DNA from: Alphaproteobacteria bacterium
Lineage (GTDB): Bacteria; Pseudomonadota; Alphaproteobacteria; JACZXZ01
NCBI GenBank assembly: GCA_035509415.1
Contig: DATJLQ010000007.1
Span: forward strand, 696-64,695
Direction of reading: 5' to 3'
DNA: 64,000 nt
This document shows, piece by piece, positions 11,792-63,300 of the stretch; position 1 is the first letter of the stretch, and each line of letters opens with the position of its first letter. Below the pieces are notes generated by a model, which worked only from the letters and a program-made list of their open reading frames with translations, made no database searches and had not been told where the DNA came from. The position numbers and the translations under genes are program-made.

Positions 11792-11819
11792 ATCGCGAAC
11801 CCGCCGCGGAGTGACGCGC

Positions 11820-12989: not shown

Positions 12990-13045
12990 GCGGCACCGCC
13001 GGCATTCCCGCAACCGTCTATTCATCGAGCGCACGAGGAAAAACC

Positions 13046-14955: not shown

Positions 14956-14985
14956 AACGACACGCTCGCTTGGAAGGACGACGAG

Positions 14986-16140: not shown

Positions 16141-17360
16141 GCAGCATTTCTTCCAGTCCCGTGACGAAGCCGACGCTCGACTCCGCGACCGATCCTGCGG
16201 TGGCCGCCGTGCTCGCGGCGTTGCGCCAAGTGGCCGGTGCTGCCGCGAATGCGCCGATCGGCCTTCATGAGCCCGAATTCGCGGGCCGCGAATGGGATTA
16301 CGTCAAATCCTGCCTCGATACGGGGTGGGTCTCGTCGGCGGGCGCGTTCGTCGACCGGTTCGAGCGCGAGCTCGCGGACTACACGGGCACGCGTCATTGC
16401 ATCGCGACGGTCAACGGCACGGCGGCACTCCATCTGGCGTTGCGCTTGGCCGGCGTCGAAGCGGGCGACGAGGTGATCGTGCCGACCATCGGCTTCATCG
16501 CGACCTGCAACGCGGTTTCCTATTGCGGCGCCGTGCCTCATCTCGTCGATAGTAACGAAACGACTCTCGGCATGGATCCGGCGAAGCTCGGCTCCTGGCT
16601 CGACGAGATCGCCGAGCGTCGCACCGGCGGCGCGCTCTTGAACCGCCGCACGGGACGGCGCCTCGCGGCAATCGTGCCGATGCACACCTTCGGCCATCCG
16701 GTCGAGATCGATGCGCTCCTCGAGCTCGCCGCGCGTTGGAACATTCCGCTCGTCGAGGACGCGGCCGAATCCTTGGGCTCGACCTATCGCGGGCGCCATT
16801 GCGGCAGCTTCGGGCGTTTGGCGGCGCTGAGTTTCAACGGCAACAAGATCGTGACGACCGGGGGCGGCGGGGCGGTGCTCACCGACGATGCCGAGCTCGC
16901 GCGCCGCGCGAAGCATCTTTCGACCACGGCCAAGCTCTCGCACCGCTGGCGCTTCGACCATGACGAGGTCGGCTACAATTACCGCCTTCCGAACTTGAAC
17001 GCGGCCTTGGGCTGCGCACAGCTCGAGCGCATGCCGTCCTTCCTCGCGCGGAAGCGCCGCCTCGCGGAATCCTACCGCGCCGCCTTCGCCGGCATTGCGG
17101 GCGTGCGCGTCTTCGAGGAGCCGGCCCACGCGCAGAGCAACTACTGGCTCAACGTCATCCTGGTCGAGCCTAAGCTGCGCGACCCGATCCTCGCCGCCAC
17201 CAACGAGGCCGGGCTCATGACGCGTCCCGCTTGGACGCCGATGCATCGCCTCCCCATGTACGAGTCGGCGCCGCGTATGGACGATCTCTCGGTCGCTGAG
17301 GAGATCGAGCGTCGCCTGATCAATCTTCCGAGCAGCGCGGGCCTCGCGGGCCATGACTAG
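16137..17360 (+). CDS. LegC/PseC-type nucleotide-sugar aminotransferase (DegT family).
   Basis: ATGA overlap. Motifs WDYVKSCLDTGWVSSAG and SFNGNKIVTTGGGGAVLT are typical of UDP/GDP-4-keto-6-deoxy sugar aminotransferases. Confidence 0.85.
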   Translation: MSSISSSPVTKPTLDSATDPAVAAVLAALRQVAGAAANAPIGLHEPEFAGREWDYVKSCLDTGWVSSAGAFVDRFERELADYTGTRHCIATVNGTAALHLALRLAGVEAGDEVIVPTIGFIATCNAVSYCGAVPHLVDSNETTLGMDPAKLGSWLDEIAERRTGGALLNRRTGRRLAAIVPMHTFGHPVEIDALLELAARWNIPLVEDAAESLGSTYRGRHCGSFGRLAALSFNGNKIVTTGGGGAVLTDDAELARRAKHLSTTAKLSHRWRFDHDEVGYNYRLPNLNAALGCAQLERMPSFLARKRRLAESYRAAFAGIAGVRVFEEPAHAQSNYWLNVILVEPKLRDPILAATNEAGLMTRPAWTPMHRLPMYESAPRMDDLSVAEEIERRLINLPSSAGLAGHD

Positions 17361-18567
17361 TCCGACGCCCCGGAAAGTCTGCGTCGTCACCGGCTCGCGC
17401 GCGGAATACGGCATCCTGCGCCCGCTGCTCGCGGCCCTCAAGGCAGACCCGGGCTTCGAGCTCCGGCTCGTCGTGTGCGCGATGCATCTCTCGGCCACCT
17501 TCGGCCTCACCTATCGCGAGATCGAGGCGGACGGCTTCGCGATCGACCGCCAGGTCGAGATGGCGCCCGACGCGGACACGGCCGCCGGGGTGACGAAGTC
17601 GATCGGCCGCGGCTGCATCGGCTTCGCCGACGCCTTTGCCGAGCTCAAGCCCGATCTCCTGGTTCTTCTGGGCGACCGCTACGAGATTCTGGCCGCGGCG
17701 GCGGCGGCGCTCGTCGCGCGCATTCCGGTCGCGCACATCCACGGCGGCGAGCTCACCGAGGGCGCCATCGACGACGCGATCCGGCACGCGGTCACCAAGA
17801 TGTCCCATCTCCATTTCTGCGCCGCCGAGACCTATCGCCAACGCGTGATCCAGCTCGGCGAGGCGCCCGAGCGCGTATTCACCGTGGGCGCGCTCGGCCT
17901 CGACAATCTCGCTGCCATCCCGCTCATGAGCCGGCACGAGCTCGAGACCGATCTCGATTTCCGCTTCGGCGACCGGATGGTGGTCGTGACTTACCATCCG
18001 GCGACCCTCGAGGCGGGCGATCCCGCGGCCGGGCTCGCCGCACTCCTCAAGGCGCTCGACCGGTTCCCCGAATTGCGCGCGGTGATCACCTATCCCAACG
18101 CGGATGCGGGGGCGAACGCGCTCATCGACGGGATCGAGGCCTACGCCGCGCGGCGCAAGGGCCGCGTCCTCCTGGTGAAGTCGCTCGGCACCCGGCGTTA
18201 TCTGAGCCTCGTGGCCCAGGCCGCCGCAGTTATCGGCAATTCGTCGAGCGGCATCATCGAGGTTCCGTCCTTCCGCGTGCCCACGGTCAATCTCGGCACG
18301 CGCCAACGTGGCCGCCTGCGCGCGGCGTCGATCGTCGATTGCGCCGAGGAGCCGGAGGCGATCCTGCGCGCGATCCAGACCGCACTCTCGTCCGAGTTCC
18401 GCGCAGGGCTCATGGGCATGGCGAATCCCTATGGCGACGGCAAGACCGCGCCGCGCATTCTCGAGCGCCTGCGCGCGGCCGATCTCGAGGCGCTGCCGAT
18501 GAAGCGCTTTTACGATCTGCCGCGCGTGACGGCGGACGCGCGCGAGACGGCGGCGGCGAATCCATGA
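17353..18567 (+). CDS. neuC: UDP/GDP-N-acetylglucosamine 2-epimerase (hydrolysing), NeuC/LegG family.
   Basis: Motifs KVCVVTGSRAEYGILRPLL and HIHGGELTEGAIDDAIRHAVTKMSHLHF are characteristic of NeuC. Confidence 0.85.
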   Translation: MTSPTPRKVCVVTGSRAEYGILRPLLAALKADPGFELRLVVCAMHLSATFGLTYREIEADGFAIDRQVEMAPDADTAAGVTKSIGRGCIGFADAFAELKPDLLVLLGDRYEILAAAAAALVARIPVAHIHGGELTEGAIDDAIRHAVTKMSHLHFCAAETYRQRVIQLGEAPERVFTVGALGLDNLAAIPLMSRHELETDLDFRFGDRMVVVTYHPATLEAGDPAAGLAALLKALDRFPELRAVITYPNADAGANALIDGIEAYAARRKGRVLLVKSLGTRRYLSLVAQAAAVIGNSSSGIIEVPSFRVPTVNLGTRQRGRLRAASIVDCAEEPEAILRAIQTALSSEFRAGLMGMANPYGDGKTAPRILERLRAADLEALPMKRFYDLPRVTADARETAAANP

Positions 18568-19637
18568 CGCGCACGCTCGTCATCGCCGAGGCCGGGGTCA
18601 ATCATAACGGCTCGGCCGAGCTCGCGCTCGAGCTCGTCGACGTCGCGGCGGCGGCGGGCGCCGACGTGGTCAAGTTCCAGACCTTCCGCGCCGACGCGCT
18701 CGTCACGCGCGACGCCCCCAAGGCCGCGTACCAGAAGGAGCGCACTGCCGGCGACGATCAATACGCGATGCTCAAGGCGCTCGAGCTCGACCGCGCGATG
18801 CATGAGCGGCTCGCCGCGCGCTGCACGGAGAAGGGGATCGAGTTTCTCTCGACCGCCTTCGACCTCGAGAGCCTGGACCTCGTGGTCGCGACGGGCGTCA
18901 AGCGCCTCAAGATTCCATCGGGCGAGATCACCAACGGCCCGTTCCTCCTGGCCGCCGCGCGCAAGAAGCTTCCCATGGTGCTTTCGACCGGCATGTCGAC
19001 CCTCGACGAGATCGAGGAAGCGCTCGGCGTCGTCGCCTTCGGCCTCCTCGCGCCGTCGCAATCGAAGCCGACCCGCGCCGCTTTCGCCGAGGCCTTTCGC
19101 GCCCCCGAGGCCGCGGCGGCATTGCGCGCCAAAGTGACGCTGCTTCATTGCACCACGAGCTATCCGGCCGCGCTCGCGGACGTGAATTTGCGCGCCATGG
19201 ACACGATGGCCGAGCGCTTCGGCCTTCCGGTCGGCTATTCCGACCACAGCGAGGGGATCGAAGTGGCGCTCGCGGCGGTGGCGCGCGGGGCCACCACCCT
19301 CGAGAAGCACTTCACGCTCTCGCGCGATTTGCCGGGCCCGGACCACAAAGCCTCCCTCGAGCCCGCCGAGCTCAGGGCGATGATCGCGGGCATCCGGCGC
19401 GTCGAGGCGTGTCTCGGCAGTGCCGCCAAGGCGCCGACCGCGGCCGAGCGTCCGATGCAGGGGATCGCGCGTCATAGCCTCGTCGCCGCGTGCGCGATCG
19501 CGGCGGGCGAGGTGTTCAGCGAAAGGAACCTCGCCTCGAAGCGGCCCGGCACCGGCCTTTCGCCCATGGGCTATTGGGACCTGCTCGGCCGCCGCGCCGC
19601 GCGCGCCTACGCGCCCGACGAGCTGATCGACCAATGA
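18564..19637 (+). CDS. neuB: N-acylneuraminate (nonulosonic acid) synthase NeuB/LegI with C-terminal SAF domain.
   Basis: ATGA overlap. N-terminal LVIAEAGVNHNGS and a complete SAF/antifreeze-like C-terminus. The upstream ORF extension is an artefact. Confidence 0.9.
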   Translation: MTRTLVIAEAGVNHNGSAELALELVDVAAAAGADVVKFQTFRADALVTRDAPKAAYQKERTAGDDQYAMLKALELDRAMHERLAARCTEKGIEFLSTAFDLESLDLVVATGVKRLKIPSGEITNGPFLLAAARKKLPMVLSTGMSTLDEIEEALGVVAFGLLAPSQSKPTRAAFAEAFRAPEAAAALRAKVTLLHCTTSYPAALADVNLRAMDTMAERFGLPVGYSDHSEGIEVALAAVARGATTLEKHFTLSRDLPGPDHKASLEPAELRAMIAGIRRVEACLGSAAKAPTAAERPMQGIARHSLVAACAIAAGEVFSERNLASKRPGTGLSPMGYWDLLGRRAARAYAPDELIDQ

Positions 19638-20863: not shown

Positions 20864-20940
20864 CGCGCGCGAGCCCCCGAGGACGCATGCCGCGCCCGTC
20901 ATATCGCACTCTCCGTGCGCCGCGCCAGGGGAATTCGGCA

Positions 20941-25322: not shown

Positions 25323-25332
25323 GGAGCGAAGC

Positions 25333-27221: not shown

Positions 27222-27266
27222 GCGCGCCCAGATCGTTCGCCCGGATTCCCCGACCGAGGAGCCACT

Positions 27267-28358: not shown

Positions 28359-28361
28359 AAG

Positions 28362-29147
28362 TTGCCGCTCGTGACCGCGAAGAACATCGTCTACCGGACC
28401 GACGGGATCGCGCGCTATTTCGAGCGCCATCGCCGCCATTGGGACGAGTTCTATCCCTCCGAGCGCTGGGTGTTCGAGGCGATCGCGCGCGAGCGGTCGA
28501 GCCTCGGCGCGGTGCTCGACGTCGGCTGCGCGTTGGGCGGCCTGGGCACGGCCTTGGCCGAGCGCTTCCCGCTCGAGCGCTATGTCGGCGTCGACATCAA
28601 CCGCCAGGCGATCGAGGCGGCGCAGGCGCGTCCCGCCGCGATCCCGAGCGAGTTCATCGCGGGCGATATTTGCGATTGCGCGCCGCTTGCGGGCCGCGTC
28701 TTCGATCTCGTCGCGGCGCTGAGCGTGGTCGATTGGAATCTCGACGGCACCGGCATCCTCAAGGCGTGCTGGGAGCGCGTGGCGCCGGGCGGCCATCTCG
28801 TGCTTTCGCTCCGGCTCACCCCGGGCGCGGGCGTGCGCGATCCCGCGCGAAGCTTCCAGTACATCTGGCACGGCGCCGAGCCGCCGCCCGCGGACGCGGA
28901 GCGCGCACCCTATGTGGTGCTCAATGGGGTCGACGCGCTGCGGCTTCTCGCGAGCCAAGTGCCCGCACCCGCGCGCATTCTCGGCTACGGCTATTGGGGC
29001 CGTCCGTCCGCGACCGCGCGCACGCTTTACGAGCGGCTCGTCTTCGCGGTGTTCGCGCTCCGCAAGGCCGCGGCGGGCGAGACGCCGGACGAGCCGGCGC
29101 TCGAGCTTCATTTGCCATCGTCGGTGCTGCTTCCGGCGGCGCGATGA
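28362..29147 (+). CDS. Class I SAM-dependent methyltransferase.
   Basis: Motif I VLDVGCALGGLG. Non-ATG (TTG) start assumed. 261 aa. Confidence 0.65.
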   Translation: MPLVTAKNIVYRTDGIARYFERHRRHWDEFYPSERWVFEAIARERSSLGAVLDVGCALGGLGTALAERFPLERYVGVDINRQAIEAAQARPAAIPSEFIAGDICDCAPLAGRVFDLVAALSVVDWNLDGTGILKACWERVAPGGHLVLSLRLTPGAGVRDPARSFQYIWHGAEPPPADAERAPYVVLNGVDALRLLASQVPAPARILGYGYWGRPSATARTLYERLVFAVFALRKAAAGETPDEPALELHLPSSVLLPAAR

Positions 29148-31024
29148 CGGGCGCGGCCGAGATCGTCATGCTGCCCGCGGACGAGGCGAGCCCGGATGCG
29201 CTCGAAGCGTGTGCCGCGCGCGGCGCCTTCGCGGTGCTTTATCTGGGATCGTCCTTCGCGGCCCTGGCCGCGCTCGAGCGCGCGCTCCCCGCGGGCTGGA
29301 CGCTGGTGCCGGTGGGCGACGGGCTGCGGCGTGCGGCGGAGTCGCTACGCCGGGAATTCCTCGATCTCGACGCCGCGGTGCTGCGCCCGGGTGTCGCGCG
29401 CGATTGGTGGGACGCGACCCATCTCGGCGAGCGCAATCCCTTGTCCTCGACCCTCGGGCTCGATCTCGCGCGTTTCTTTTTTCTGCTCGAGACGCTGCGG
29501 CGCCACGAGCGATTGCTCGTGCTGTGCGACGATCGCGCGCGTTGCCGCCTCTACGACGCCGAGATGCGCCGCCGCGGCCATCGCGTCGGCTGGGGCGGGC
29601 CGGGACGCGCGCGGCCATTGGGCGAGGGGGTGCGCGCCATCGGCTACGTCTTGCGTTGCCTTGCGCGCGGCGTCCGGGTCCGGCTTCGCGGCTGCGCCGA
29701 CTATCGCCGGCGCCGCCGCCTGTTGCGCTCGCTTCGACTTGCGCGGCCGCTCGACCTCGAAGGTTTACGGCGCGCCCGGGTGCTGCTGGTCTCGTGGCTA
29801 CGCGCCGAGACCTTTCCGCCGGGTGCGGCCTTGCCCGACGACGCCTATCTCCCGGGCTTCGCGGCGACCGCGACGGCCGCGGGCGAGGGCGTCGCCTATC
29901 TCATGCGCGCGGCTCCCGGGCTCGAGGATTACGCGGCCGCGGCGCAGGGTGCCCTCGCCTCGAGGGTTCCAGTGCTGATGTTCGAGGAGCTGGCGCCCGC
30001 GGGCGCGATGCTCGCGGCGGCGTTCATTTCCATGGCGCTGCCGTGGCGCGTGCCGCGCGCGACGCTCGCGGGCGAGGACGTGGGCGCCATCCTACGTCTC
30101 GGCGCCTGGCGCGAGCTCGGCAGCTTCGACGTCGTGACCGCCTTCGGCCACAAGGCCCTGTGCCAGACGCTCGCGCGGCTCGGCGCCGCACCCGCCTCGC
30201 TCGCCCATCCCTACGAGCATCAGCCCTGGGAAAAGATGCTGCGCCGAGGATTGCGCCGCTGGCTGCCCGATGCGCGCGTGATCGGGGTGCAGCACGTCCC
30301 GTTCGCCCGGACCTATCTGAGCCTGTTTCCGAGCCGGCGCGAGATCGAAAGCGGCCTCATTCCGGACCGGCTTTTGGTCGCGGGCGAGGGATACGCGGAC
30401 TGGTTCCGCGCCGTGGGTTTCCCTCCCGGGCGCCTCGCGGTTCTGGGCGCCGTGCGTTATGCCAAGCCGTCGCGCGCGGCCGAAACGGGAGGCCGTGGTA
30501 TCCTGTGTTGCACGAGCATCGATCTCGCGGAATCGATCGAGCTCGTCGCCAAGGCAGCGCTCGCGAGCCGCGGGCTCGGCCGCACCGTCACGGTCAATTA
30601 TCACCCCGCGACGGGCGAGGATTTCCGCCGCGCGTTGCGCGAGGGGGCGGCGCGCATCGCAGGCGGCGACCTCGACCATCTCGGCTACGTCGACGCACCG
30701 GCCGCGACGCTCCTCGACGACGCGCACCTGGTCCTTTATTGCACCTCGGCCGCGGTCTTCGACGCGCTGCTTGCGGGCAAGCCTGCGGTCTTCGTCGGGC
30801 GCGAGACCGATCTCGACTACGACAAGGCGCCCGACGGATTGACGACGCGGTGCCGCACGGTCGGGGAATTGCGCGCGATCCTGGCCGCTTCCTTTGCCGA
30901 GCCCGCCGGCGACGCGGCGCGCGCGCCGCGTACGGCCGAGCTCGAGCGCTGGATCGCGCCGGTCAAGGAGTCGATCCTGCGCGCGGCCCTGTCGCTCGCG
31001 CCGCGCGAAGCCGTTCCGGCGTGA
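29144..31024 (+). CDS. Large hypothetical protein (626 aa). A candidate glycosyltransferase, possibly of the KpsC/KpsS capsule-synthesis type.
   Basis: ATGA overlap with the upstream stop. Two-lobed Rossmann-like organisation. No confident motif match. The long ORF 26984-31024 is a frame artefact. Confidence 0.5.
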   Translation: MTGAAEIVMLPADEASPDALEACAARGAFAVLYLGSSFAALAALERALPAGWTLVPVGDGLRRAAESLRREFLDLDAAVLRPGVARDWWDATHLGERNPLSSTLGLDLARFFFLLETLRRHERLLVLCDDRARCRLYDAEMRRRGHRVGWGGPGRARPLGEGVRAIGYVLRCLARGVRVRLRGCADYRRRRRLLRSLRLARPLDLEGLRRARVLLVSWLRAETFPPGAALPDDAYLPGFAATATAAGEGVAYLMRAAPGLEDYAAAAQGALASRVPVLMFEELAPAGAMLAAAFISMALPWRVPRATLAGEDVGAILRLGAWRELGSFDVVTAFGHKALCQTLARLGAAPASLAHPYEHQPWEKMLRRGLRRWLPDARVIGVQHVPFARTYLSLFPSRREIESGLIPDRLLVAGEGYADWFRAVGFPPGRLAVLGAVRYAKPSRAAETGGRGILCCTSIDLAESIELVAKAALASRGLGRTVTVNYHPATGEDFRRALREGAARIAGGDLDHLGYVDAPAATLLDDAHLVLYCTSAAVFDALLAGKPAVFVGRETDLDYDKAPDGLTTRCRTVGELRAILAASFAEPAGDAARAPRTAELERWIAPVKESILRAALSLAPREAVPA

Positions 31025-31097: not shown

Positions 31098-31973
31098 ATG
31101 ACCGCCCAGCCCGTCCGCATCGGCAAGAAGTCCGTCGGTCCCGGCCAGCCCTGCTACATCGTGGGCGAGATCGGCATCAACCACAATGGCGACCTCGCGA
31201 TCGCGAAGAAGCTCATCGACCGAGCGGTCGAATTCGGCTTCGACGCGGTCAAGTTCCAGAAACGCACGGTCGACGTGGTCTACACGCCCGAGGATCTGGC
31301 GCGCGAGCGCGAATCGCCGTTCGGCAGCACCAATGGCGACCTGAAACGCGGCCTCGAGTTCGGCGCGGCGCAATACAAGGAAATCGATGCGTATTGCCGC
31401 GCGCACGGCATCGATTGGTTCTGCTCGCCCTGGGACGAGGGCAGCGTCGACTTTCTCGAGCGCTTCGACCCCGTATGCTACAAGATCGCGTCGGCCTGCC
31501 TGACCGACGACGGGCTCCTCAAGCACATCAAGGCCACGAAGCGTCCGATCGTCCTCTCGACCGGCATGAGCACGCTCGACCAGATCGACCGCGCGGTCGC
31601 GATCCTCGAGGGCACGCCGCTCATCCTTCTCCACACCAACTCGACCTATCCCTCGAAGCACGAGGAGCTCAACCTCTCGGTGATTGCGAGCTTGCGCGCG
31701 CGTTACGGGAAGCCGGTCGGCTACAGCGGCCACGAGCCGGACGTGATCCCATCGGTCATGGCGGCGTCTGCCTACGACGCCTGCATGGTCGAGCGCCACA
31801 TCACCCTCGACCGCGCGATGTGGGGCACCGATCAGGCGGCGAGCCTCGAGCCGCGTGGCATGGAGCTGATGGCGAAATACATCCGCACTTGGGAAGTGGT
31901 GCGCGGCGACGGCAAGAAGCGCGTTTACGACAGCGAGATCCCGATCCTCAAGAAGCTGCGCCGGGTCGGCTGA
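31098..31973 (+). CDS. NeuB-family sugar-acid synthase lacking a C-terminal SAF domain (KDN/Neu5Ac-9-phosphate-synthase-like or PseI-like).
   Basis: RBS AGGAG 7 nt upstream. N-terminal CYIVGEIGINHNGDL and the NeuB TIM-barrel core. 291 aa, with no SAF domain. Confidence 0.8.
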   Translation: MTAQPVRIGKKSVGPGQPCYIVGEIGINHNGDLAIAKKLIDRAVEFGFDAVKFQKRTVDVVYTPEDLARERESPFGSTNGDLKRGLEFGAAQYKEIDAYCRAHGIDWFCSPWDEGSVDFLERFDPVCYKIASACLTDDGLLKHIKATKRPIVLSTGMSTLDQIDRAVAILEGTPLILLHTNSTYPSKHEELNLSVIASLRARYGKPVGYSGHEPDVIPSVMAASAYDACMVERHITLDRAMWGTDQAASLEPRGMELMAKYIRTWEVVRGDGKKRVYDSEIPILKKLRRVG

Positions 31974-31990
31974 GGCGCGCACCCATTCCC

Positions 31991-33148
31991 ATGACCGCGA
32001 CGCTCCGCCTTCTGCATTTGGTGAACAGCCACAGCACCAACGTGGGCAATGGGGCGCTCGCCGACGGTGCCGAGCGCGTGCTGGGCGAGGATCTGGCGGC
32101 ACCGGTCTCGTGGTCGCGCGTGCCGTGGGACGATTACACCTTCGGGCTCAAGAAATTCGATCGGGATTTCGTAGGCGCGATCAACCGCTCGGACGGCATG
32201 ATCGTGGGCGGTGCGGTCACGATCAACGGGCGCGCCTATCTCGAGCACGCGGGCATGCGCTTCGACCTTCCGCCAGCGCTTTGGCCGGAGATCCGTAAAC
32301 CATTGATCTTCTACGGGATTTCCTACCGACATTGGGCGGGCCAGCGGTTCCATCACGCGGACAAGCTGCGTTGGGCGTTCGACCACGCGCTCGGGCGCCA
32401 AGACATGCTGCTCGCGTTGCGCAACGACGGCACGCGCGAATGGCTCGAAGGCGCGCTCGGCATCGCGAGCGATCGGCTCCACGTAATCCCCGATCCCGCG
32501 GTGTTCGTCGAAGCCGACGACGCGGCGGCCGCGGCGGACGATCTTGCGCTCGATCCCGGGCGACCCAACATCGTGCTCGCCCTCAACGACGAGGATTCGG
32601 CCGAGCGCTACGGCACACCCGAGCGGCGCATGGAAGTGCTGCGCGGGATTGCCCAGGCGCTCGAGCCCGTGCTCGATGCGCGCGGCGCAAATCTCGTCTT
32701 GGCGCCCCATTATTTCGACGATCATCGCATGATCGCCGACTTCATCGCGTGCTGCCGCCCGCAGCTCGCGCACCAGCGCATGATCTCGACCGGCCTCGCG
32801 CGCATGGCGGACGCGAAGCGCTTCTACGGCCGCTACGCCCGTGCCCAGCTCGTGATCGCGATGCGCGTCCACGCCATGTCGCCCTCGATCGGCCTCGGCG
32901 TGCCGATGATCCCGCTCGTGACCCAGGACCGGCTCGGCCGCTTTCTCGACGATGTCGGCTTGGGCGACCTGGCGATCGACGCGCTCGCACCCGATCTCGC
33001 GGGTCGCCTCCGCGTTGCCATCGAGGCGGCGCTCGACCGGCCCGACGAGCTGCGGCGCCGCTTCCGCGTCACGCGCGACGGCATGCGCGCGCGGCTCGGT
33101 GCCTTCAATCGAAAGGTGGGGGAATTGCTTCATGGCCAAACGCGCTAA
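31991..33148 (+). CDS. Polysaccharide pyruvyl transferase family protein (CsaB/WcaK-like).
   Basis: 385 aa. PS_pyruv_trans-like pattern (LHLVNSHSTNVGNGAL...). Confidence 0.7.
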   Translation: MTATLRLLHLVNSHSTNVGNGALADGAERVLGEDLAAPVSWSRVPWDDYTFGLKKFDRDFVGAINRSDGMIVGGAVTINGRAYLEHAGMRFDLPPALWPEIRKPLIFYGISYRHWAGQRFHHADKLRWAFDHALGRQDMLLALRNDGTREWLEGALGIASDRLHVIPDPAVFVEADDAAAAADDLALDPGRPNIVLALNDEDSAERYGTPERRMEVLRGIAQALEPVLDARGANLVLAPHYFDDHRMIADFIACCRPQLAHQRMISTGLARMADAKRFYGRYARAQLVIAMRVHAMSPSIGLGVPMIPLVTQDRLGRFLDDVGLGDLAIDALAPDLAGRLRVAIEAALDRPDELRRRFRVTRDGMRARLGAFNRKVGELLHGQTR

Positions 33149-33644
33149 GTCCGCCGCGCGTCCGCGTCTCGATCCGGCGCGCGTGGCGCTCATCGTGTTC
33201 GATTTCGACGGCGTGCTCACCGACAACCGCGTGCTTGTGCTCGAGGACGGACGCGAGGCGGTCCTTTGCAGCCGCGCCGACGGGCTCGGCTTCGACGCGT
33301 TGCGCGCGGCGCGCATTCCGACGCTCATTCTCTCGACCGAGCGCAATCCGGTGGTGGCGGCGCGCGCGCGAAAGCTCGGCGTGCCGGTGCTCCAGGCGGT
33401 CGCCGACAAGGCGCAGGCGCTCGAGGCCCATTGCATTGCCGCGGGCATCGCGCTCGCGAGCGTGGTCTATGTCGGGAACGACCTCAACGATCTCAAGGCC
33501 ATGGGGACGGTCGGGCATCCGGTCGCGGTCGCCGACGCCCATGAGCGTGTGCGTAAGGCGGCGCGTTACGTGCTTAAAGCGGCGGGCGGCGAGGGGGCCG
33601 CGCGCGAGCTGGTCGAGCGGCTCATGGGCCTCGCGGTCGGATAG
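33132..33644 (+). CDS. KdsC-family HAD-IIIA phosphatase (3-deoxy-ulosonate-phosphate or acylneuraminate-9-phosphate phosphatase-like).
   Basis: Motif I VFDFDGVLTDN and C-terminal GNDLNDL motif as in KDO-8-P and KDN-9-P phosphatases. Confidence 0.8.
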   Translation: MAKRAKSAARPRLDPARVALIVFDFDGVLTDNRVLVLEDGREAVLCSRADGLGFDALRAARIPTLILSTERNPVVAARARKLGVPVLQAVADKAQALEAHCIAAGIALASVVYVGNDLNDLKAMGTVGHPVAVADAHERVRKAARYVLKAAGGEGAARELVERLMGLAVG

Positions 33645-33647
33645 GCG

Positions 33648-34394
33648 ATGGCCGAGATTCTCGCCCTCATTCCCGCGCGCGGCGGGTCGAAGTCGATCCC
33701 GCGCAAGAACCTGCTCCCGCTCGCGGGGCGGCCGCTCATCGTCCATTCGATCGAGCAGGCGCGCGCCTCGCGCCTGGTTTCGCGCGTGATCGTCACGACC
33801 GACGACGCCGAGATCGCGGCGGTCGCCAAGGCGGCGGGTGCCGAGGTGCCGTTCTTGCGGCCCGCCGAGCTCGCGCGCGACGACTCCCTCGACATCGAGT
33901 TTCATCGCCACGCGCTCGACTGGCTCGGCGCGCAAGAGCGCTATCGGCCCGACGCCGTCGTCAATCTTCGGCCCACCAATCCGACCCGGCGCCCCGCGAC
34001 CATCGACCGCGCGATCGAGACGTTCCTCGCCCATCCCGAGGCGGATTCGCTCCGCTCGGTCTCGCTCGCCGAGCAAACGCCCTACAAAATGTGGCTCATC
34101 GGCGCCGATGGCTGCTTGGCGCCGGTGGCCGCGCTCCCGGGCACGACCGAGCCCTACAACCTTCCGCGCCAGCGCCTGCCGCTGGTCTATTGGCAGAACG
34201 GCTATGTCGACATCGCCTGGACGCGCACCGTGATGGAGAAGCAATCGACCACGGGGACGCGCATCCTGCCCTTCGTGATCGAGGAGCGGAGCGTCGACAT
34301 CGACTATCCGGACGAGGTCGCGGACGCCGAACGCGCCATCGCCGAGGGCGACGCCGAGGCGAACGGCTCGGCCGGAAAGCGTCACCCGTCATGA
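33648..34394 (+). CDS. Acylneuraminate cytidylyltransferase-family protein (third paralogue).
   Basis: N-terminal LALIPARGGSKSIPRKN. Confidence 0.8.
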   Translation: MAEILALIPARGGSKSIPRKNLLPLAGRPLIVHSIEQARASRLVSRVIVTTDDAEIAAVAKAAGAEVPFLRPAELARDDSLDIEFHRHALDWLGAQERYRPDAVVNLRPTNPTRRPATIDRAIETFLAHPEADSLRSVSLAEQTPYKMWLIGADGCLAPVAALPGTTEPYNLPRQRLPLVYWQNGYVDIAWTRTVMEKQSTTGTRILPFVIEERSVDIDYPDEVADAERAIAEGDAEANGSAGKRHPS

Positions 34395-35422
34395 AGTTCC
34401 TCGTTTGCGGCCTGGGCTCGATCGGCCAGCGCCATGTGCGCGTGCTGCGCTCGCTCCTCGGCGACGAGGCCACGATCTACGTCCATAGGAAACGCGGCCT
34501 CGACATCGTCATCAACGACGACATGACGGCGATCCAGGGCCGCGATCCGGTCGCCCATTACGGGCTCATCGACGAGCCGTCCTTCGAGCGCGCCCTTGAG
34601 CGCGAGCTCGATGCCGTGCTGGTGACCAATCCGATCTCGATGCATGTGGAAACCGCGCTCGCCGCGGCCGAGCGCGGGCACAATCTCTTCATCGAGAAAC
34701 CCTTGGGCGCCTCGCTCGACGGGGTCGAGCGGCTCGAATCGCTGGTCGCGCGGAGCGGGCTCGTGACCCATGTGGGCTATCAGCTGCGCTTCCATCCCGC
34801 CCTGCGCCTGATGCGCGAGCTGTTGCAGGAGGGTGCCATCGGCGATCCGATCGCCGCGGAGGTCCATTTCGGCGAATGGCTGCCGGGCATGCACCCCTAC
34901 GAAGATTACCGCACGAGCCATGCGGCGCGGCGTGACCAGGGTGGGGGTGCCATCCTGTGCCTGAGCCACGACATCGATTACGCCACGTGGTTGTTCGGCC
35001 TGCCGAGGGTGCTGTTCGCGGTCGGCGGCAAGCTTTCCGATCTCGAGATGGACGTCGAGGACACGGCCTCGATCCTGATGCAATGCGGCGCGAGCGGCCG
35101 GCCGGTGCCGGTCCAGGTCCATGTCGACTTCGTCCAACGCGTGCCGCGGCGGTTTTGTCGCATCGCCGGCACGCGCGGCACGATCGCGTGGGATTATCAC
35201 CGGAACCAGGTGACGATCGTGGATGCGGCCGGGAACGAGACAGAGCGGAGCTTCCCCGGCTGGCAGCGCAACGACATGTTCCGGGCCCAGATGGCCCATT
35301 TCATCGCCTGCCTCGGCGGCGCGGAGCGGCCGCAGATCCCCGTTTCGGCCGGGGCCGCGACGCTCAGAGTCTGCCTGGCGGCGAAGCAATCCCTCGAGAC
35401 CGGGAAGGCGGTGACCCTATGA
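34391..35422 (+). CDS. Gfo/Idh/MocA-family oxidoreductase.
   Basis: ATGA overlap. KFLVCGLGSIGQRHV Rossmann fold and EKP motif. Confidence 0.8.
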   Translation: MKFLVCGLGSIGQRHVRVLRSLLGDEATIYVHRKRGLDIVINDDMTAIQGRDPVAHYGLIDEPSFERALERELDAVLVTNPISMHVETALAAAERGHNLFIEKPLGASLDGVERLESLVARSGLVTHVGYQLRFHPALRLMRELLQEGAIGDPIAAEVHFGEWLPGMHPYEDYRTSHAARRDQGGGAILCLSHDIDYATWLFGLPRVLFAVGGKLSDLEMDVEDTASILMQCGASGRPVPVQVHVDFVQRVPRRFCRIAGTRGTIAWDYHRNQVTIVDAAGNETERSFPGWQRNDMFRAQMAHFIACLGGAERPQIPVSAGAATLRVCLAAKQSLETGKAVTL

Positions 35423-36267
35423 GCACGAGCTCCAAGGACGGCGGCGTCGGCGCGCGCTTCCGCCTCGACGGCAAGGTGATCGCGATCACCGGCGGCGGCG
35501 GCTTCTTGGGCCCGCGCCACGCCGAGGCGATCGCGGAAGCGGGCGGCGTTCCGGTGCTGCTCGACATCAGGCGCGCGGCAGCCGAGGCGGCAGCGGCGGC
35601 GATCTCGAAGACCGGCGCCGAGGCACTCGGCCTCGGCTGCGACATCACCGACCCGGCCGCGGTGCGCGCCGCGCTCGCTACGGTGCTCGCGCGTTACGGC
35701 CGCATCGACGGGCTCGTCAACAACGCCGCCAACGATCCCAAGGTCGACACCGACGGCGCGGTCCAGAATTCGAGCCGGCTCGAGACCTTCCCGCTCGCGC
35801 TCTGGAACGCGGACCTCGCGGTCGGGCTCACGGGCGCTTTCGTGTGCGCGCAGGCGTTCGGCGGCGAGATGGCGCGCCGGCGCTCGGGCGTCATCCTCAA
35901 CATCGCGTCCGACCTCGCCGTGATCGCGCCCGACCAGCGCCTCTATCGCCAGCCCGGCCTCGCGCCCGAGGCGCAGCCGGTCAAGCCCGTGACCTATTCG
36001 GTGTTCAAGGCCGGGCTCCTGGGCCTCAACCGCTATCTCGCGACCTATTGGGCCGAGGCGGGGGTGCGCGTCAACGCGCTCTCGCCGGGCGGCGTCCATA
36101 ACGGCCAGGACGACGCCTTCGTCGCGCGCCTCGCGGACCTGATCCCGCTCGGCCGCATGGCGCGCGCGGACGAATACAAGGCGGCCGTCGTGTTCCTGCT
36201 GTCCGACGCTTCGTCCTACATGACCGGCGCCAACCTGGTCATGGATGGCGGCCGCAGCACCTGGTAG
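35419..36267 (+). CDS. SDR-family oxidoreductase (short-chain dehydrogenase).
   Basis: ATGA overlap. Motifs VIAITGGGGFLG, NNAA and YSVFK (YxxxK). Confidence 0.8.
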   Translation: MSTSSKDGGVGARFRLDGKVIAITGGGGFLGPRHAEAIAEAGGVPVLLDIRRAAAEAAAAAISKTGAEALGLGCDITDPAAVRAALATVLARYGRIDGLVNNAANDPKVDTDGAVQNSSRLETFPLALWNADLAVGLTGAFVCAQAFGGEMARRRSGVILNIASDLAVIAPDQRLYRQPGLAPEAQPVKPVTYSVFKAGLLGLNRYLATYWAEAGVRVNALSPGGVHNGQDDAFVARLADLIPLGRMARADEYKAAVVFLLSDASSYMTGANLVMDGGRSTW

Positions 36268-36311: not shown

Positions 36312-37613
36312 ATGGTTAAAAGAGTTTATTTCCACATCGACGAGGTGGCGCGCGATTCGGTCGTCGCCGCCAATCTGAAGCGCGTGCTGGCGGCGCGCGG
36401 CATCGAGCTCGTCTACGGCAACCGGCCGTCGAGCCGGTTCCTGCCGCGCGTGTGCCCGTTCGACGCGCTCGTCCTGCCGACCGTGCAGTTCGTCCAGGCG
36501 GTCGCCCCGGATCCCACGGCTCCCATGCCGCCCATGATCGTGCTGCCGACCGAGGGCATCGGCGGCATTCCCGAGGACCCGAAGCGCGCGGCGTTGAAGT
36601 TCCTGGGCGATCCCTTCATGGCCGGCGACCGGCGCTGGGTCGAGAAGGTCGCGGCCTTTTGCCTCTGGGGCAAGCAGCAGCTCATCGGCTTCGAGCAGTT
36701 CGCGCCCCATCTCGCGGATCGCTGCCACGTGATCGGCCATCCGCGCTTCGACCGGCGCTGCCTGCCGCGGCCGCGGCCGCGCGCGGCGAGCGGCGACGGG
36801 ACCGTGCGCATCGGGCTCCTGACCCGCTACTCGATGCTCAACCCGTTCGACGGGCGCACGGCCTTGACCTATGTCCACTCGGCGCGCCGCTCCAAATTCC
36901 ACCATATCCAGCTGCAGCCCGACCCGACCCTCGATATCGAGGATCTTTATTTCACCAACGTGTCGGATTTGCGCGTCACCTTCGATCTCATCGACCGGCT
37001 CGACCCGCAACGCCATCGCGTGGCGCTACGCATCCATCCGCGCGAGGACCGCACCCATTGGGAAGCGCTGGCGGCGGCGCAGCGTCTGCCGATCTCGATC
37101 GCACCCTGGGACCAGCCCTTCATCCATTGGCTCGAGGAGGTCGACTGGATGGTGGCCCCGCCCTCCACCAGCTTCTACGACGCCTTCGTCATGGGAAAAC
37201 CGGTGGTCTGCATCGATCGCATCGCGCCCAAGCGCAAGGCGCATGTGCTGCCCTTGAGCGACGATTCCTCGCGCATCATCGATTACACGTTCCGGCCCAA
37301 GAGCTTGGACGAGCTCATGGCCCTGATCGCGCGCCCGCCGGCCGGGCCGGTCGAGCTCTCGGCGCCGGTCGCAACGCTTCTCGCCAACGACGCCCATTAC
37401 CCCGAGTGCGGCCGCTCGCTCGACGCGCTCGCCGACGTGTGCGAGCTCGTGATGCGCGCGCACCCGGTCGAGCAGCGCGCGTCCGAAAGTCTCCGCTACG
37501 GGCTCCTCACCGCGGTCGACGGGCTGCGCCAGCGCCGGATGGTGGACCAGGGGGCCTGGTTCCGGCTCGACCGCGGCCGGCGCCGCTGGATCGACGGGCT
37601 GGCGGCCGTCTAG
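36312..37613 (+). CDS. Hypothetical protein (433 aa). A candidate surface-carbohydrate biosynthesis protein or glycosyltransferase.
   Basis: No defined motif. Last gene of the long plus-strand operon. Confidence 0.5.
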   Translation: MVKRVYFHIDEVARDSVVAANLKRVLAARGIELVYGNRPSSRFLPRVCPFDALVLPTVQFVQAVAPDPTAPMPPMIVLPTEGIGGIPEDPKRAALKFLGDPFMAGDRRWVEKVAAFCLWGKQQLIGFEQFAPHLADRCHVIGHPRFDRRCLPRPRPRAASGDGTVRIGLLTRYSMLNPFDGRTALTYVHSARRSKFHHIQLQPDPTLDIEDLYFTNVSDLRVTFDLIDRLDPQRHRVALRIHPREDRTHWEALAAAQRLPISIAPWDQPFIHWLEEVDWMVAPPSTSFYDAFVMGKPVVCIDRIAPKRKAHVLPLSDDSSRIIDYTFRPKSLDELMALIARPPAGPVELSAPVATLLANDAHYPECGRSLDALADVCELVMRAHPVEQRASESLRYGLLTAVDGLRQRRMVDQGAWFRLDRGRRRWIDGLAAV

Positions 37614-58982: not shown

Positions 58983-60671
<1,689 letters not shown>

Positions 60672-60912
60672 GGCGCGCTATCGCGGGTTCTGCGCCGTCA
60701 ATCCGCGACGCGCCTTCGGTCGCGCCCGAACAGGCGCGTCGGCGCCGCCTGGTTCGAGAGATACGGGTCGCGTCCCTGCGAGGGATCGCCCGCCGCGAGC
60801 GTGTCGTGGATCGGCGTGTCCAATGCGGTCACCGGGACGGGCGCTCGGTATTAGGGCGCAAACGCCACCAATGGGCGCTTGGGTTTAGGCATGAGCGGCT
60901 TATCTTGGCACC

Positions 60913-63000: not shown

Positions 63001-63002
63001 GA

Positions 63003-63254: not shown

Positions 63255-63300
63255 GCAATACTATCCTTTTGAACGCGGTGACCGTATGGGGAGGGCGGGC

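Follow-up and report, generated by a model that had tools for sequence, protein, structure and literature searches.

The window analysed here is a 64,000-nucleotide stretch of DNA from an alphaproteobacterial metagenome-assembled genome (MAG). It encodes a NeuB-like synthase, a KdsC-type phosphatase and a cytidylyltransferase, with a polysaccharide pyruvyl transferase gene between the first two. Do these genes specify a sugar acid made through a phosphorylated intermediate, and what would the product be? Our analysis indicates that positions 31098-36267 are probably a single, horizontally mobile module of six translationally coupled genes for a CMP-activated nonulosonic acid of the KDN type. 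The six genes belong to recognisable families, are coupled, and are conserved as a set.

Gene organisation and distribution

An earlier note on this DNA had described four genes ending at 34394. They were borne out by the calls of a codon-usage gene caller on this window (70% G+C) and by clear family matches (Table 1). The genes are tightly packed: 17 nt separate the synthase (NeuBs) from the pyruvyl transferase (Pyr) gene, Pyr overlaps the phosphatase gene by 17 nt, and 3 nt lie between the latter and the cytidylyltransferase gene (CTP3). Upstream of NeuBs is an RBS-like sequence (AGAGGAGAA), and a Shine-Dalgarno-like run (GGTGGGGGAA) precedes the phosphatase ATG at 33132. The phosphatase has an alternative GTG start at 33183, but we favoured 33132 because the homologues are 166-185 aa long. 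ATGA stop/start overlaps at 34391 (CTP3/Gfo) and 35419 (Gfo/SDR) show that the operon continues beyond the end previously given. Hence, the unit ends at 36267 and includes a conserved pair of Gfo/Idh/MocA and SDR oxidoreductases that had been omitted.

Table 1. Features of the window and loci used in the comparison.
Feature	Position or locus	Strand	Basis or context
Separate non-phosphorylated legionaminic-acid-type route, outside the module	10077..19637	+	Family matches
626-aa protein encoded ahead of the module, distant member of the TIGR04326 family (surface carbohydrate biosynthesis)	29144..31024	+	
NeuBs, SAF-less NeuB family, predicted nonulosonate-9-phosphate (KDN-9-P-type) synthase	31098..31973	+	PF03102 match
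Pyr, predicted PS_pyruv_trans-family ketal-pyruvyl transferase	31991..33148	+	PF04230
KdsC-family (C0 HAD) phosphatase, predicted nonulosonate-9-phosphate phosphatase	33132..33644	+	NCBIfam, motif residues
Predicted CMP-nonulosonate synthetase (cytidylyltransferase #3 of the window, CTP3)	33648..34394	+	PF02348
Gfo/Idh/MocA oxidoreductase (PtmF-like), module member	34391..35422	+	Pfam GFO_IDH_MocA and C-terminal domains
SDR oxidoreductase (PtmA-like), module member	35419..36267	+	adh_short_C2, 148 bits
Uncharacterised ~430-aa protein	36312..37613	+	TIGR04396, faint polysialyltransferase match
Pyr orthologue loci	L001, L085-L090		Inside or beside module

Related modules occur in distant bacterial phyla as well, and one Omnitrophota contig has the six genes in identical order. 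The ~430-aa protein encoded downstream (start at ATG 36312 or GTG 36345) matched TIGR04396, "surface carbohydrate biosynthesis protein", with 43 bits, below the cut-off, and its orthologue (53%) adjoins the module in L087. It could conceivably be a transferase for the CMP-sugar. Whether the gene preceding NeuBs belongs to the module is uncertain; its product scored 50 bits against TIGR04326 (cut-off 250), with no Pfam match and no orthologue in the related loci examined. The genes for LptD, LptF and LptG lie 3-8 kb downstream, and the window encodes several GT4/GT2 glycosyltransferases.

The second sugar-acid route claimed for this DNA is indeed present and non-phosphorylated, but its type is legionaminic, not Neu5Ac. 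Its NeuC (476 bits), NeuB with SAF (460 bits) and LegC-family aminotransferase (535 bits) scored above their cut-offs. It also includes a NeuD-type acetyltransferase, a PtmE-like CBS-nucleotidyltransferase, an Fe-ADH, a DegT protein, cytidylyltransferase #1 and a dehydratase.

The synthase and the phosphatase

NeuBs matched the Pfam NeuB profile over residues 39-274 of 291 (233 bits, E 4e-69), and the same search gave no match to a SAF domain. The alignment showed that it keeps the metal-binding His and the PEP-binding Lys, and that its FQKR and GTDQ motifs are common to proven users of mannose-6-phosphate (Man-6-P). NeuBs and the P. parvum and BT1714-like synthases also have in common a K-R following the FQ motif and the pattern G[TS]D[QH]. 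Its SAF-less relatives form a tight clade (50-77% identity) with members in Alphaproteobacteria, Myxococcota, Chloroflexi, Verrucomicrobiota, Actinomycetota and one archaeon. In 285 of 300 bootstraps this clade grouped with the Kdn-9-P synthetase of P. parvum and a BT1714-like synthase, the latter taken from a contig where it lies beside a 99%-identical copy of BT1713. NmNeuB, SpsE, PseI and LegI-type enzymes fell on the opposite side of the split. NeuBs is 35-38% identical to proven KDN-9-P synthases, versus 26-33% to non-phospho enzymes, and this modest identity counts against the assignment. The same is true of the curated NCBIfam equivalog cut-offs, missed by NeuBs (230 bits with the NeuB model, cut-off 400), the phosphatase and the cytidylyltransferase.

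The phosphatase matched Hydrolase_3 of Pfam (43 bits) and has the DxD motif. Its NCBIfam scores were close to each other: 93 bits for KdsC (cut-off 208), 88 bits for the KDN-9-P phosphatase model (cut-off 180) and 87 bits for the YrbI subfamily. Residues E70, R78 and K81 align to Glu56, Arg64 and Lys67 of BT1713, positions which we take to mark KDN-9-P phosphatases rather than Kdo-8-P phosphatases. E-R-K occupies these positions in 69 of the 87 aligned phosphatases (loci and references), whereas R-R-S and R-R-E were seen in two Kdo-8-P phosphatases of solved structure.

Genome context links the two enzymes. A KdsC-type HAD phosphatase adjoins the SAF-less synthase in 73 of 80 genome loci. Most of these loci also have an adjoining cytidylyltransferase (best matches: 34 CTP3-like, 30 CTP1-like, 4 CTP2-like), while legionaminic genes are missing from nearly all.

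Comparison with known systems

Bacteroides thetaiotaomicron has the same three-step logic in the same three families: BT1714 (KDN-9-P synthase), BT1713 (KDN-9-P phosphatase) and BT1715 (CMP-KDN synthetase). The genes are clustered as in the window, the synthases fall on a common side of the NeuB tree, and the phosphatases share the substrate-binding residues of BT1713. Identity to the window proteins amounts to 35-37% (synthase) and about 37% (phosphatase). At 346 aa, the Bacteroides synthase includes a SAF domain, and it has TKR in place of the QKR motif; the clusters viewed lack both the pyruvyl transferase and the Gfo/SDR pair. The Kdn-9-P synthase of P. parvum (312 aa) is SAF-less like that of the window and strictly Man-6-P-dependent (PMC6200933, with sequence and assays), and 181 of 300 bootstraps place it as the closest outgroup to the SAF-less clade. 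FQKR, SGH and GTD(H/Q)AASLEP motifs are common to it and NeuBs, but it is eukaryotic and 33-35% identical, its genes are unclustered, and the alga yielded no dedicated phosphatase. Loss of the SAF domain is thus not diagnostic of phospho-sugar use, since the Bacteroides KDN-9-P synthase has the domain and the P. parvum enzyme lacks it.

Streptomyces loci carry SAF-less clade members with 54-55% identity in the order CTP-HAD-NeuB, without the pyruvyl transferase or the Gfo/SDR pair. In L080 a single ORF covers both the cytidylyltransferase and the phosphatase matches. Streptomyces phosphatases belong to the subfamily of the window enzyme (about 54% identity), whose best PDB match is 3MMZ (150 bits). 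Streptomyces walls contain Kdn teichulosonic acid (PMC11481543), and SCO4879-4881 (neuA/neuB) lie within a PhoP-activated wall-polymer cluster (PMC3479208). It should be noted that the loci compared are those of the SAF-less clade and may not be orthologous to SCO4881 itself. The vertebrate NANS/NANP/CMAS pathway also uses a phosphorylated acceptor, dephosphorylation and then CMP activation. NANS probably shows motif similarity to the window synthase family but has a SAF/AFP domain, NANP is of a different HAD subfamily, and fusions of CMAS-like CTP-transferase and KdsC-like domains also occur in the bacterial family (L085, L091).

Cytidylyltransferase and oxidoreductases

CTP3 matched CTP_transf_3 with 81 bits and the PseF model with 120 bits, below the cut-off of 206. 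The window encodes three cytidylyltransferases, and similarity to CMP-Kdn synthetases did not distinguish between them. Orthologues of CTP3 (52-67% identity) are found in the same module in L001 and L085-L090, and in the Chloroflexi and Myxococcota cassettes no cytidylyltransferase other than a CTP3-type one is within reach. The Gfo/Idh/MocA protein has orthologues in L087, L089 and L090 (52-65%) and more distant ones in the Chloroflexi and Myxococcota cassettes (33-41%); the SDR has them in the same three loci (56-69%). The best NCBIfam model of the SDR is NF006619/PRK09186 (154 bits, below cut-off), presumably a PtmA-type model.

Proposed pathway and alternatives

In the pathway that we propose, the SAF-less synthase would use PEP and a hexose 6-phosphate (Man-6-P being the likeliest) to make a 3-deoxy-nonulosonate 9-phosphate (KDN-9-P). 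The KdsC-type phosphatase would take off the 9-phosphate, and the cytidylyltransferase would form the CMP-sugar for the adjacent uncharacterised transferase. With a second PEP, Pyr would attach a pyruvate ketal to the product; the simplest assumption is that it goes onto the ulosonic acid itself, at the 7,9 (or 8,9) diol that loss of the phosphate sets free. The Gfo/SDR pair may perform an undefined redox step, in sugar-phosphate supply or in tailoring of the (CMP-)sugar. The succession of synthase, phosphatase and CMP activation through a phosphorylated ulosonate, as the earlier note had it, is upheld by the tree, the adjacency in the 80 loci and the phosphatase marker residues; such a route is likely, and we strongly infer a nine-carbon product. 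The chances that the specific sugars are Man-6-P and KDN are about even; they are somewhat lower for pyruvate on the ulosonic acid as opposed to an adjacent sugar.

Pyr matched PS_pyruv_trans over profile positions 1-277 of 280 (60 bits, cut-off 25.3). Its AlphaFold model (pLDDT 94.5) has a GT-B-like fold and matches Pvg1p (5AX7), among many GT-B proteins. Its invariant residues R144, R206, R292-x-H294 and R314 are spaced as are R148, R207, R306-x-H308 and K328 of CsaB (PMC10435577). Six loci retrieved independently and a Devosia genome locus have orthologues (48-57% identity) within the module or next to it; Devosia, Magnetovibrio and Omnitrophota are among the lineages, besides several metagenomic contigs. 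The presence of Pyr in the window is not accidental. Pyr is absent from many modules (Streptomyces, Chloroflexi, Myxococcota) and is therefore an accessory gene.

Pyr might instead serve the same glycan programme by forming a classical 4,6-ketal on a hexose or hexosamine next to the ulosonic acid in the lipid-linked repeat, which is a less probable but serious reading. The characterised members, among them CsaB, WcaK and Pvg1p, all work on assembled glycans, whether lipid-linked or polymeric, and none on free or CMP-sugars; hexoses that receive a 4,6-pyruvyl group outnumber other targets by a wide margin (PMC6801904, PMC10435577). The glycosyltransferases of the window would fit such a target. 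Yet Pyr lies between synthase and phosphatase, or straight after the phosphatase, in modules whose surrounding glycosyltransferases are wholly different between lineages. Moreover, among the matches listed, nearly all contigs with this Pyr subfamily also carry a SAF-less synthase; 36 contigs are apparently common to the two lists of 120 best matches. Finally, ulosonic acids with a pyruvate ketal on the exocyclic diol are natural residues: 7,9-pyruvyl-Kdn in the teichulosonic acid of Promicromonospora citrea and 7,8-pyruvyl-Kdo in Cobetia marina, bacteria of other phyla than the MAG (PMC6801904). The Kdn precedent and the conservation of Pyr in unrelated lineages strengthen the original suggestion of a pyruvylated product, with the ulosonic acid as its putative target.

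It is rather unlikely that the route is phosphorylated but leads elsewhere than to KDN, the Gfo/SDR pair, possibly with other island enzymes, making an unusual hexos(amin)e-6-phosphate for a neuraminic-acid-like or epimeric nonulosonate. The window, L087, L089, L090 and the cassettes of Chloroflexi and Myxococcota all keep the pair together with the cytidylyltransferase. PtmA-linked precursor supply reportedly runs from Fru-6-P to GlcN-6-P (Schoenhofen et al. 2009). An equal trio (PtmA-LegF-PtmF: SDR, CTP_transf_3 and Gfo/Idh/MocA) occurs in legionaminic clusters of Campylobacter, Vibrio and Plesiomonas (PMC4481668) and in L091, which speaks against our assignment. In these clusters PtmA was assigned to nucleotide-sugar precursor supply (PMC4481668), so the acceptor of the module may be something other than plain Man-6-P. 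The Methylomagnum cassette has sugar-modifying genes of its own upstream (transketolase-like and aminotransferase genes), which hints at acceptor variation within the SAF-less clade. However, the trio of the window travels with a phospho-sugar synthase and a phosphatase, and most related loci lack Leg genes. The synthase tree is not split by presence of the pair: Streptomyces, without it and with known Kdn chemistry, groups with Anaerolineales, which have it. The module also lacks an acetyltransferase or 2-epimerase, and Man-6-P is freely available.

A pathway with no phosphorylated intermediate is improbable. NeuBs would then be a spare legionaminic synthase or a plain ManNAc-using NeuB, with the HAD protein acting elsewhere, e.g., on a sugar-phosphate precursor. 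The legionaminic-type pathway of the window would suit this, as would PDB 6NCS, a SAF-less NeuB in the non-phospho branch, and an Azospirillum thermophilum plasmid where the SAF-less gene lies divergently beside a Leg operon, with no LegI in the stretch viewed. But 6-deoxy Leg precursors cannot carry a 6-phosphate, and yet the phosphatase is regularly paired with the synthase. Its carboxylate-binding Arg and Glu/Lys pair fit an ulosonate-phosphate phosphatase, the synthase clade groups with phospho-sugar users, Leg genes are rare around it, and the window already has a full-length NeuB with SAF. The Kdo-8-P logic also considered earlier, i.e. a housekeeping KdsC of the LPS core with a KdsB-like cytidylyltransferase, is very improbable despite the nearby lpt genes and the slightly higher KdsC score, which is far under its cut-off, because the phosphatase has the Glu and Lys of BT1713 where solved Kdo-8-P phosphatases have Arg and Ser/Glu, its partner is a NeuB-family enzyme and not a KdsA-type synthase, and Streptomyces, Gram-positive bacteria without Kdo synthesis, also have the cassette.

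The pyruvylated Kdn and Kdo residues have been described as chemical structures, with no genes assigned in the review (PMC6801904). The KDN-type module with its built-in pyruvyl transferase is thus a candidate gene set for pyruvate-capped KDN, known until now from chemistry only.

Genes and operon layout

The window has a G+C content of 70%, and raw lists of open reading frames are therefore full of spurious frames. With a codon-usage caller trained on the window we found one long operon on the forward strand, from about 10.1 kb to 37.6 kb. An earlier note had described four genes in this region: a NeuB-family synthase lacking the SAF domain (NeuBs), a polysaccharide pyruvyl transferase (Pyr), a KdsC-type phosphatase (HAD), and a cytidylyltransferase (here CTP3, the third of three in the window). 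The caller and the family matches recovered all four with the same coordinates. The genes are tightly packed (from NeuBs to CTP3, a 17-nt gap, a 17-nt overlap and a 3-nt gap), and a Shine-Dalgarno-like run precedes the ATG of the phosphatase. The unit is longer than the span first proposed, since two ATGA overlaps run into the genes of a Gfo/Idh/MocA oxidoreductase (Gfo2) and then of an SDR oxidoreductase (SDR). We refer to these six genes as the module.

The sequence of synthase, phosphatase and CMP activation had been correctly named in the same note. The three-step logic is that of Bacteroides thetaiotaomicron (BT1713, KDN-9-P phosphatase; BT1714, KDN-9-P synthase; BT1715, CMP-KDN synthetase), of the Prymnesium parvum route, and of vertebrate NANS/NANP/CMAS. 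None of NeuBs, Pyr, HAD and CTP3 reached a curated NCBIfam equivalog cut-off. By their profile scores they are family members and not close copies of characterised enzymes. The module proteins belong to a distinct bacterial clade.

Genes of the module, the separate legionaminic-type (Leg) route of the window, and Pyr-bearing loci in other genomes
Feature	Position or source	Strand	Description
NeuBs	31098-31973	+	291 aa; PF03102, 233 bits; no SAF domain
Pyr	31991-33148	+	Full-length PS_pyruv_trans, 60 bits (cut-off 25.3)
HAD	33132-33644	+	Small C0-type; KdsC 93, BT-type KDN-9-P phosphatase 88, YrbI subfamily 87 bits
CTP3	33648-34394	+	CTP_transf_3, 81 bits
Gfo2	34391-35422	+	Gfo/Idh/MocA oxidoreductase
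SDR	35419-36267	+	SDR oxidoreductase
Leg route	10077-19637		NeuD-type acetyltransferase, PtmE-type CBS-nucleotidyltransferase, Fe-ADH, two DegT aminotransferases, cytidylyltransferase, dehydratase, NeuC, NeuB with SAF
L001	Devosia MAG		NeuBs-Pyr-HAD-CTP
L085	540-kb NCBI assembly contig		NeuBs-Pyr-HAD-CTP, HAD and CTP fused
L086	JGI contig		NeuBs-Pyr-HAD-CTP
L087	ENA contig		NeuBs-HAD-Pyr; on the other strand CTP-Gfo-SDR and a homologue of window 36312-37613
L088	Magnetovibrio blakemorei		NeuBs-Pyr-HAD-CTP
L089	Alphaproteobacterial MAG		SDR-Pyr ... NeuBs-CTP-Gfo
L090	Omnitrophota contig		NeuBs-Pyr-HAD-CTP-Gfo-SDR, the exact window order, 48-71% identity

The SAF-less synthase

NeuBs matches the whole PF03102 profile (positions 1-241 of 241; 233 bits against a gathering cut-off of 22.1). 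The alignment shows conservation at the columns of E25, K53, Q55, K129, H215, H236 and D247 of NmNeuB, which lie in the motifs GEIG, KFQ, YKIAS, SGH, ERH and GTD. At the position of NmNeuB E134 the SAF-less clade has Cys or Ser, the P. parvum enzyme Ser and the BT1714-like one Asp. NeuBs remains below the NeuB/NnaB equivalog TIGR03569 (230 bits, cut-off 399.65) and has no SAF match; the window's other NeuB (18564-19637), by contrast, scores 460 bits with this profile and has the SAF domain. In the database search, the top 120 clusters share 67-100% identity with NeuBs, and nearly all are 289-297 aa long. Among genomes taken at one per species, 593 relatives turned up; the best 80 belong to Alphaproteobacteria, Myxococcota, Chloroflexi, Verrucomicrobiota, Actinomycetota (many of them Streptomyces), Melainabacteria-like Cyanobacteria, and one archaeon.

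We compared the clade with two KDN-9-P synthases whose dependence on Man-6-P is biochemically proven. For P. parvum, we translated the expression construct given in the PMC6200933 supplement. The BT1714-like enzyme was read from a contig bearing a 99%-identical copy of BT1713, reached by a search with the BT1713 sequence of the same supplement. BT1714-like synthases (L081, 578-1618; L082, 4359-5399) contain, besides the SAF domain, a segment inserted behind the first helix; neither is present in the proven algal synthase, which is SAF-less like NeuBs. The idea that SAF loss marks the use of phospho-sugars was rejected, given the SAF domain of the BT1714-like enzyme and the position of the SAF-less 6NCS in the non-phospho branch. 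A SAF domain can therefore go together with phospho-sugar use, and its loss is no hallmark.

By MAFFT alignment, the window clade and both proven KDN-9-P synthases share a basic K-R pair directly after the FQ/MT motif, where ManNAc-using NeuB, PseI and LegI-type enzymes have T-[HYF]. They also share a P..[FWY]G.T[YN]G segment in the next loop, and G[TS]D[QH] instead of GPD. In the human enzyme the corresponding loop favours the phosphorylated substrate (PMC8208679). In a neighbour-joining tree of 250 columns, anchored by these two proven phospho-sugar synthases only, the SAF-less clade and both references split off in 285 of 300 bootstraps from NmNeuB, SpsE, PseI, three LegI-type proteins and the SAF-less 6NCS of Leptospira. 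The window synthase is 35-38% identical to the proven KDN-9-P synthases, versus 26-33% to the enzymes of the other branch. With two proven references, the tree is good but not conclusive evidence that members of the SAF-less clade use phospho-sugars. The literature that we searched offered no biochemical characterisation of the SAF-less bacterial clade; SAF-less branches had been noted, and read only as "environmental" and possibly less efficient enzymes (PMC8208679).

The phosphatase and the cytidylyltransferase

The alignment of HAD with BT1713 (PDB 3E81/4HGO) is ungapped across the relevant region, and the four HAD motifs (FDFDGVLTD, LILST, DK and GNDLND) align and are intact. Residues E70, R78 and K81 of the window phosphatase fall on Glu56, Arg64 and Lys67 of BT1713. 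Lu et al. 2009 and Daughtry et al. 2013 reportedly found that Arg64 binds the ulosonate carboxylate in both phosphatase lineages and that the Glu/Lys pair separates KDN-9-P from Kdo-8-P phosphatases. The E-R-K combination occurs in 69 of the 87 aligned phosphatases (loci and references), with Glu and Lys kept in most others; in the solved Kdo-8-P phosphatases 3MN1 and 4UM5 these positions read R-R-S and R-R-E.

HAD might be a housekeeping KdsC, and its best profile score is indeed to that family, though below the NF007019 cut-off (93 bits versus 208) and with Glu and Lys at the marker positions. The E/R/K residues and the intact motifs disfavour this, and also argue against a phosphatase of a non-ulosonate precursor. 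HAD also scores below the KDN-9-P phosphatase equivalog NF058599 (87.9 bits, cut-off 180). By sequence it falls into a subfamily of its own, and the nearest solved structure there is 3MMZ, a "putative HAD family hydrolase" of Streptomyces avermitilis with no assigned function (150 bits). Since it carries the E/R/K markers, 3MMZ is probably the enzyme that dephosphorylates Kdn-9-P in teichulosonic acid synthesis. Streptomyces walls bear Kdn-containing teichulosonic acid (PMC11481543), and SCO4879-SCO4881 (neuA/neuB) belong to a PhoP-activated cluster for a phosphate-free wall polymer (PMC3479208). These walls, this cluster and 3MMZ give the SAF-less CTP-HAD-NeuB loci of Streptomyces their relevance, on the assumption that the loci are orthologous to SCO4881.

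CTP3 matches PF02348 with 80.7 bits (cut-off 22.6), and its N-terminal motif of the PARGGSK(S/G)IxxKN type reads IPARGGSKSIPRKN in the translation. Similarity to the CMP-Kdn synthetases of P. parvum and Bacteroides does not allow KDN specificity to be inferred for it: with the algal enzyme, the window's first cytidylyltransferase (CTP1) scores above CTP3, and all three have hardly any match to the Bacteroides one. The three were therefore assigned to pathways by synteny.

The module in other genomes

We searched the best 80 genome loci of the SAF-less clade with the window proteins. A KdsC-type HAD adjoins the synthase in 73 of them, and most also have a cytidylyltransferase (best match CTP3 in 34, CTP1 in 30, CTP2 in four). 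LegB, LegC, NeuC and NeuB with SAF are absent from nearly all. One type of cassette, in Streptomyces and others, consists of CTP-HAD-NeuB only. The other, in Chloroflexi and Myxococcota, has an additional Gfo/Idh/MocA protein and SDR; in Myxococcota the trio of SDR, Gfo and cytidylyltransferase lies between synthase and phosphatase. In one locus (L080) a single ORF spans the cytidylyltransferase and HAD matches.

Several neighbouring genes vary. A B12-binding radical-SAM protein and an RNase_T-family protein (L085, 13300-15404; L086, 13308-15409; L088, 6524-8627) occupy the slot that Gfo and SDR have in the window, L087 and L090, and resemble another tailoring set that serves the same core. 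A PhyH-family dioxygenase is encoded just after the module (37610-38428, reverse strand). On an Azospirillum thermophilum plasmid (NZ_CP029359.1; L091, 9042-10576) PhyH and a TylF-type O-methyltransferase follow a SAF-less NeuB and a CTP-HAD fusion; these may be conserved tailoring functions, e.g., hydroxylation or O-methylation. On a Methylomagnum ishizawai plasmid (NZ_AP019784.1; L092, 2901-8513) SAF-less NeuB and HAD-IIIA are directly preceded by a split transketolase-like pair, a class-III aminotransferase and an SDR. This arrangement suggests that part of the clade condenses another sugar phosphate, made for the purpose.

The pyruvyl transferase

Pyr matches PF04230 almost end to end (positions 1-277 of 280) and stays below the CsaB equivalog TIGR03609 (24 bits versus 213). 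Its R144, R206, R292-V-H294 and R314 are invariant across 37 homologues. Their spacing matches that of the PEP-binding residues of CsaB (R148, R207, R306-x-H308, K328) and Pvg1p (R217, R266, R337-x-H339, K361) (PMC10435577). The AlphaFold model (pLDDT 94.5) has a GT-B-like fold of two Rossmann domains, and Foldseek returned GT-B enzymes, with Pvg1p (5AX7) at rank 37 (E 2.6e-5, TM 0.46/0.52). The modelled fold is thus consistent with Pvg1p and non-discriminating, as the fold search did not separate pyruvyl transferase from epimerase or glycosyltransferase. A PDB sequence search gave noise only, a metagenome scan for relatives gave 570 pattern matches with none confirmed, and tblastn against plasmids found no match.

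Pyr occurs in only two of the best 80 species-level loci, and is much commoner among the closest relatives of NeuBs on the contigs examined. The database search found only 214 clusters at E <= 1e-5, and 36 "longest contig" sizes were identical between the best 120 Pyr matches and the best 120 synthase matches. The Pyr subfamily is therefore dedicated largely to the module. The glycosyltransferases that flank Pyr-bearing modules vary between lineages. Pyruvylated residues of this kind occur in nature: the teichulosonic acid of Promicromonospora citrea contains 7,9-pyruvyl-Kdn, and Cobetia marina has 7,8-pyruvyl-Kdo; the review that describes them assigns genes to neither (PMC6801904).

The redox pair

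The two oxidoreductases are encoded beside the CTP_transf_3 gene (CTP3-Gfo2-SDR), and the same trio occurs in L087, L089, L090 and the loci of Chloroflexi and Myxococcota. SDR is below the NF006619 equivalog (154 bits, cut-off 255). Gfo2, SDR and CTP3 could be mere genes of the Leg route: the trio is known from legionaminic clusters, where PtmA was placed in precursor supply (PMC4481668, Table 5), and it stands in the Leg operon of the A. thermophilum plasmid. Yet it accompanies phospho-route genes in the window, and in three other phyla without Leg genes. We rejected the Leg route as the sole explanation because in Chloroflexi and Myxococcota the trio joins the SAF-less synthase and the phosphatase with no Leg genes within 8 kb. 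The presence or absence of the Gfo/SDR pair does not split the synthase tree, which mildly favours a common acceptor with Gfo/SDR tailoring downstream. That the oxidoreductase pair accompanies a cytidylyltransferase in two chemically different pathways raises the question of the real function of PtmA/PtmF-type proteins. In the literature searched, we found no description of a dedicated Pyr and a PtmF/PtmA-like pair conserved within such a cassette.

The surrounding glycan island

The island is of the surface-glycan type: it encodes GT4 and GT2 glycosyltransferases, an MsbA/HepA-like ABC exporter and CysD/CysNC, and LptD, LptF and LptG come after these. In the Leg route, one of the DegT aminotransferases is a member of the LegC family (535 bits, cut-off 420), NeuC scores 476 bits and the full-length NeuB with SAF 460 bits (cut-off 400). 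By these matches the route is of the legionaminic-acid type, without a phosphorylated nonulosonate, which bears out the proposal that two mechanistically different pathways coexist here. An additional Fe-dependent alcohol dehydrogenase and the second DegT, between the PtmE-like gene and the first cytidylyltransferase (11811-14236), hint at a modified Leg derivative.

A further sub-module (22776-29147) encodes a PGDH-like D-2-hydroxyacid dehydrogenase, a HAD_2 phosphatase, an epimerase/reductase, the second cytidylyltransferase, a HisC/CobD-like aminotransferase, a Gfo/Idh/MocA protein and a methyltransferase. Such a set resembles a pathway for a CMP/CDP-activated phospho-amino-alcohol or glycerate-type substituent. 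In 11 of the 80 loci, mostly Anaerolineales, a CTP_transf_3 and 2-Hacid_dh pair is also encoded at a distance of 2-8 kb from the SAF-less NeuB cassette. Beside the GT4 glycosyltransferases, a CysD-like protein with a PAPS_reduct domain and a CysN/CysC fusion (2498-5202; sulfate to PAPS) suggest that the island glycan may be sulfated; no sulfotransferase was recognised.

Three sizeable genes without Pfam matches (8615-9550 and 19649-20902, reverse strand; 29144-31024, forward strand, with only a 50-bit TIGR04326 match) are candidates for novel transferases or polymerases. The TIGR04396-like gene at 36312-37613 has a faint polysialyltransferase match and an orthologue only in L087, and is a weak candidate for the transferase that would put the sugar onto the glycan. 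The unannotated proteins of about 430-480 aa that flank modules in different lineages could not be unified: phmmer sorts them into two families, and hhalign leaves them apart (probabilities of 2-10%; the single value of 81% links two families from outside the window). Towards its right-hand end (60001-64000) the window drops in G+C from about 0.69 to 0.62 and 0.56, which may reflect a foreign insertion or an RNA/IS region.

Proposed pathway and significance

In the pathway that we propose, the SAF-less synthase would condense PEP with a hexose-6-P, most likely Man-6-P, to a nonulosonate-9-P. HAD would then remove the 9-phosphate, CTP3 would activate the sugar with CMP, and a separate transferase, for which 36312-37613 is a weak candidate, would move it onto the glycan. 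Pyr would add a ketal from a second PEP, on the free sugar, the CMP-sugar or the assembled glycan. A 7,9 or 8,9 ketal needs prior loss of the 9-phosphate, which fits the position of Pyr beside the phosphatase gene. A more specific version seems to us rather unlikely: that the product is CMP-7,9(or 8,9)-O-(1-carboxyethylidene)-KDN or an epimer, with Pyr acting on the free or CMP-bound monosaccharide directly after loss of the 9-phosphate, and the PtmF/PtmA-like pair serving general CMP-nonulosonate tailoring and not precursor supply. If true, the product would be a new nucleotide sugar, Pyr would be the first ketal-pyruvyl transferase at the precursor level, and pyruvylated ulosonic acids would have their first assigned gene set.

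Detections of KDN and other nonulosonic acids in environmental bacteria are growing in number, and to our knowledge the only biochemically defined bacterial KDN pathway is that of Bacteroides. The present analysis links to the phosphorylated logic a very large clade with generic annotations ("N-acetylneuraminate synthase family protein" and "HAD-IIIA hydrolase"), and provides a usable annotation rule, i.e., a SAF-less NeuB with the FQKR motif beside a HAD with the E/R/K markers. The variant with Pyr and the redox pair recurs in different phyla. With it, pyruvylated KDN/Kdo residues, so far known from structural chemistry only, gain their first concrete candidate genes, and it has a cultured carrier, Magnetovibrio blakemorei, which makes it testable.
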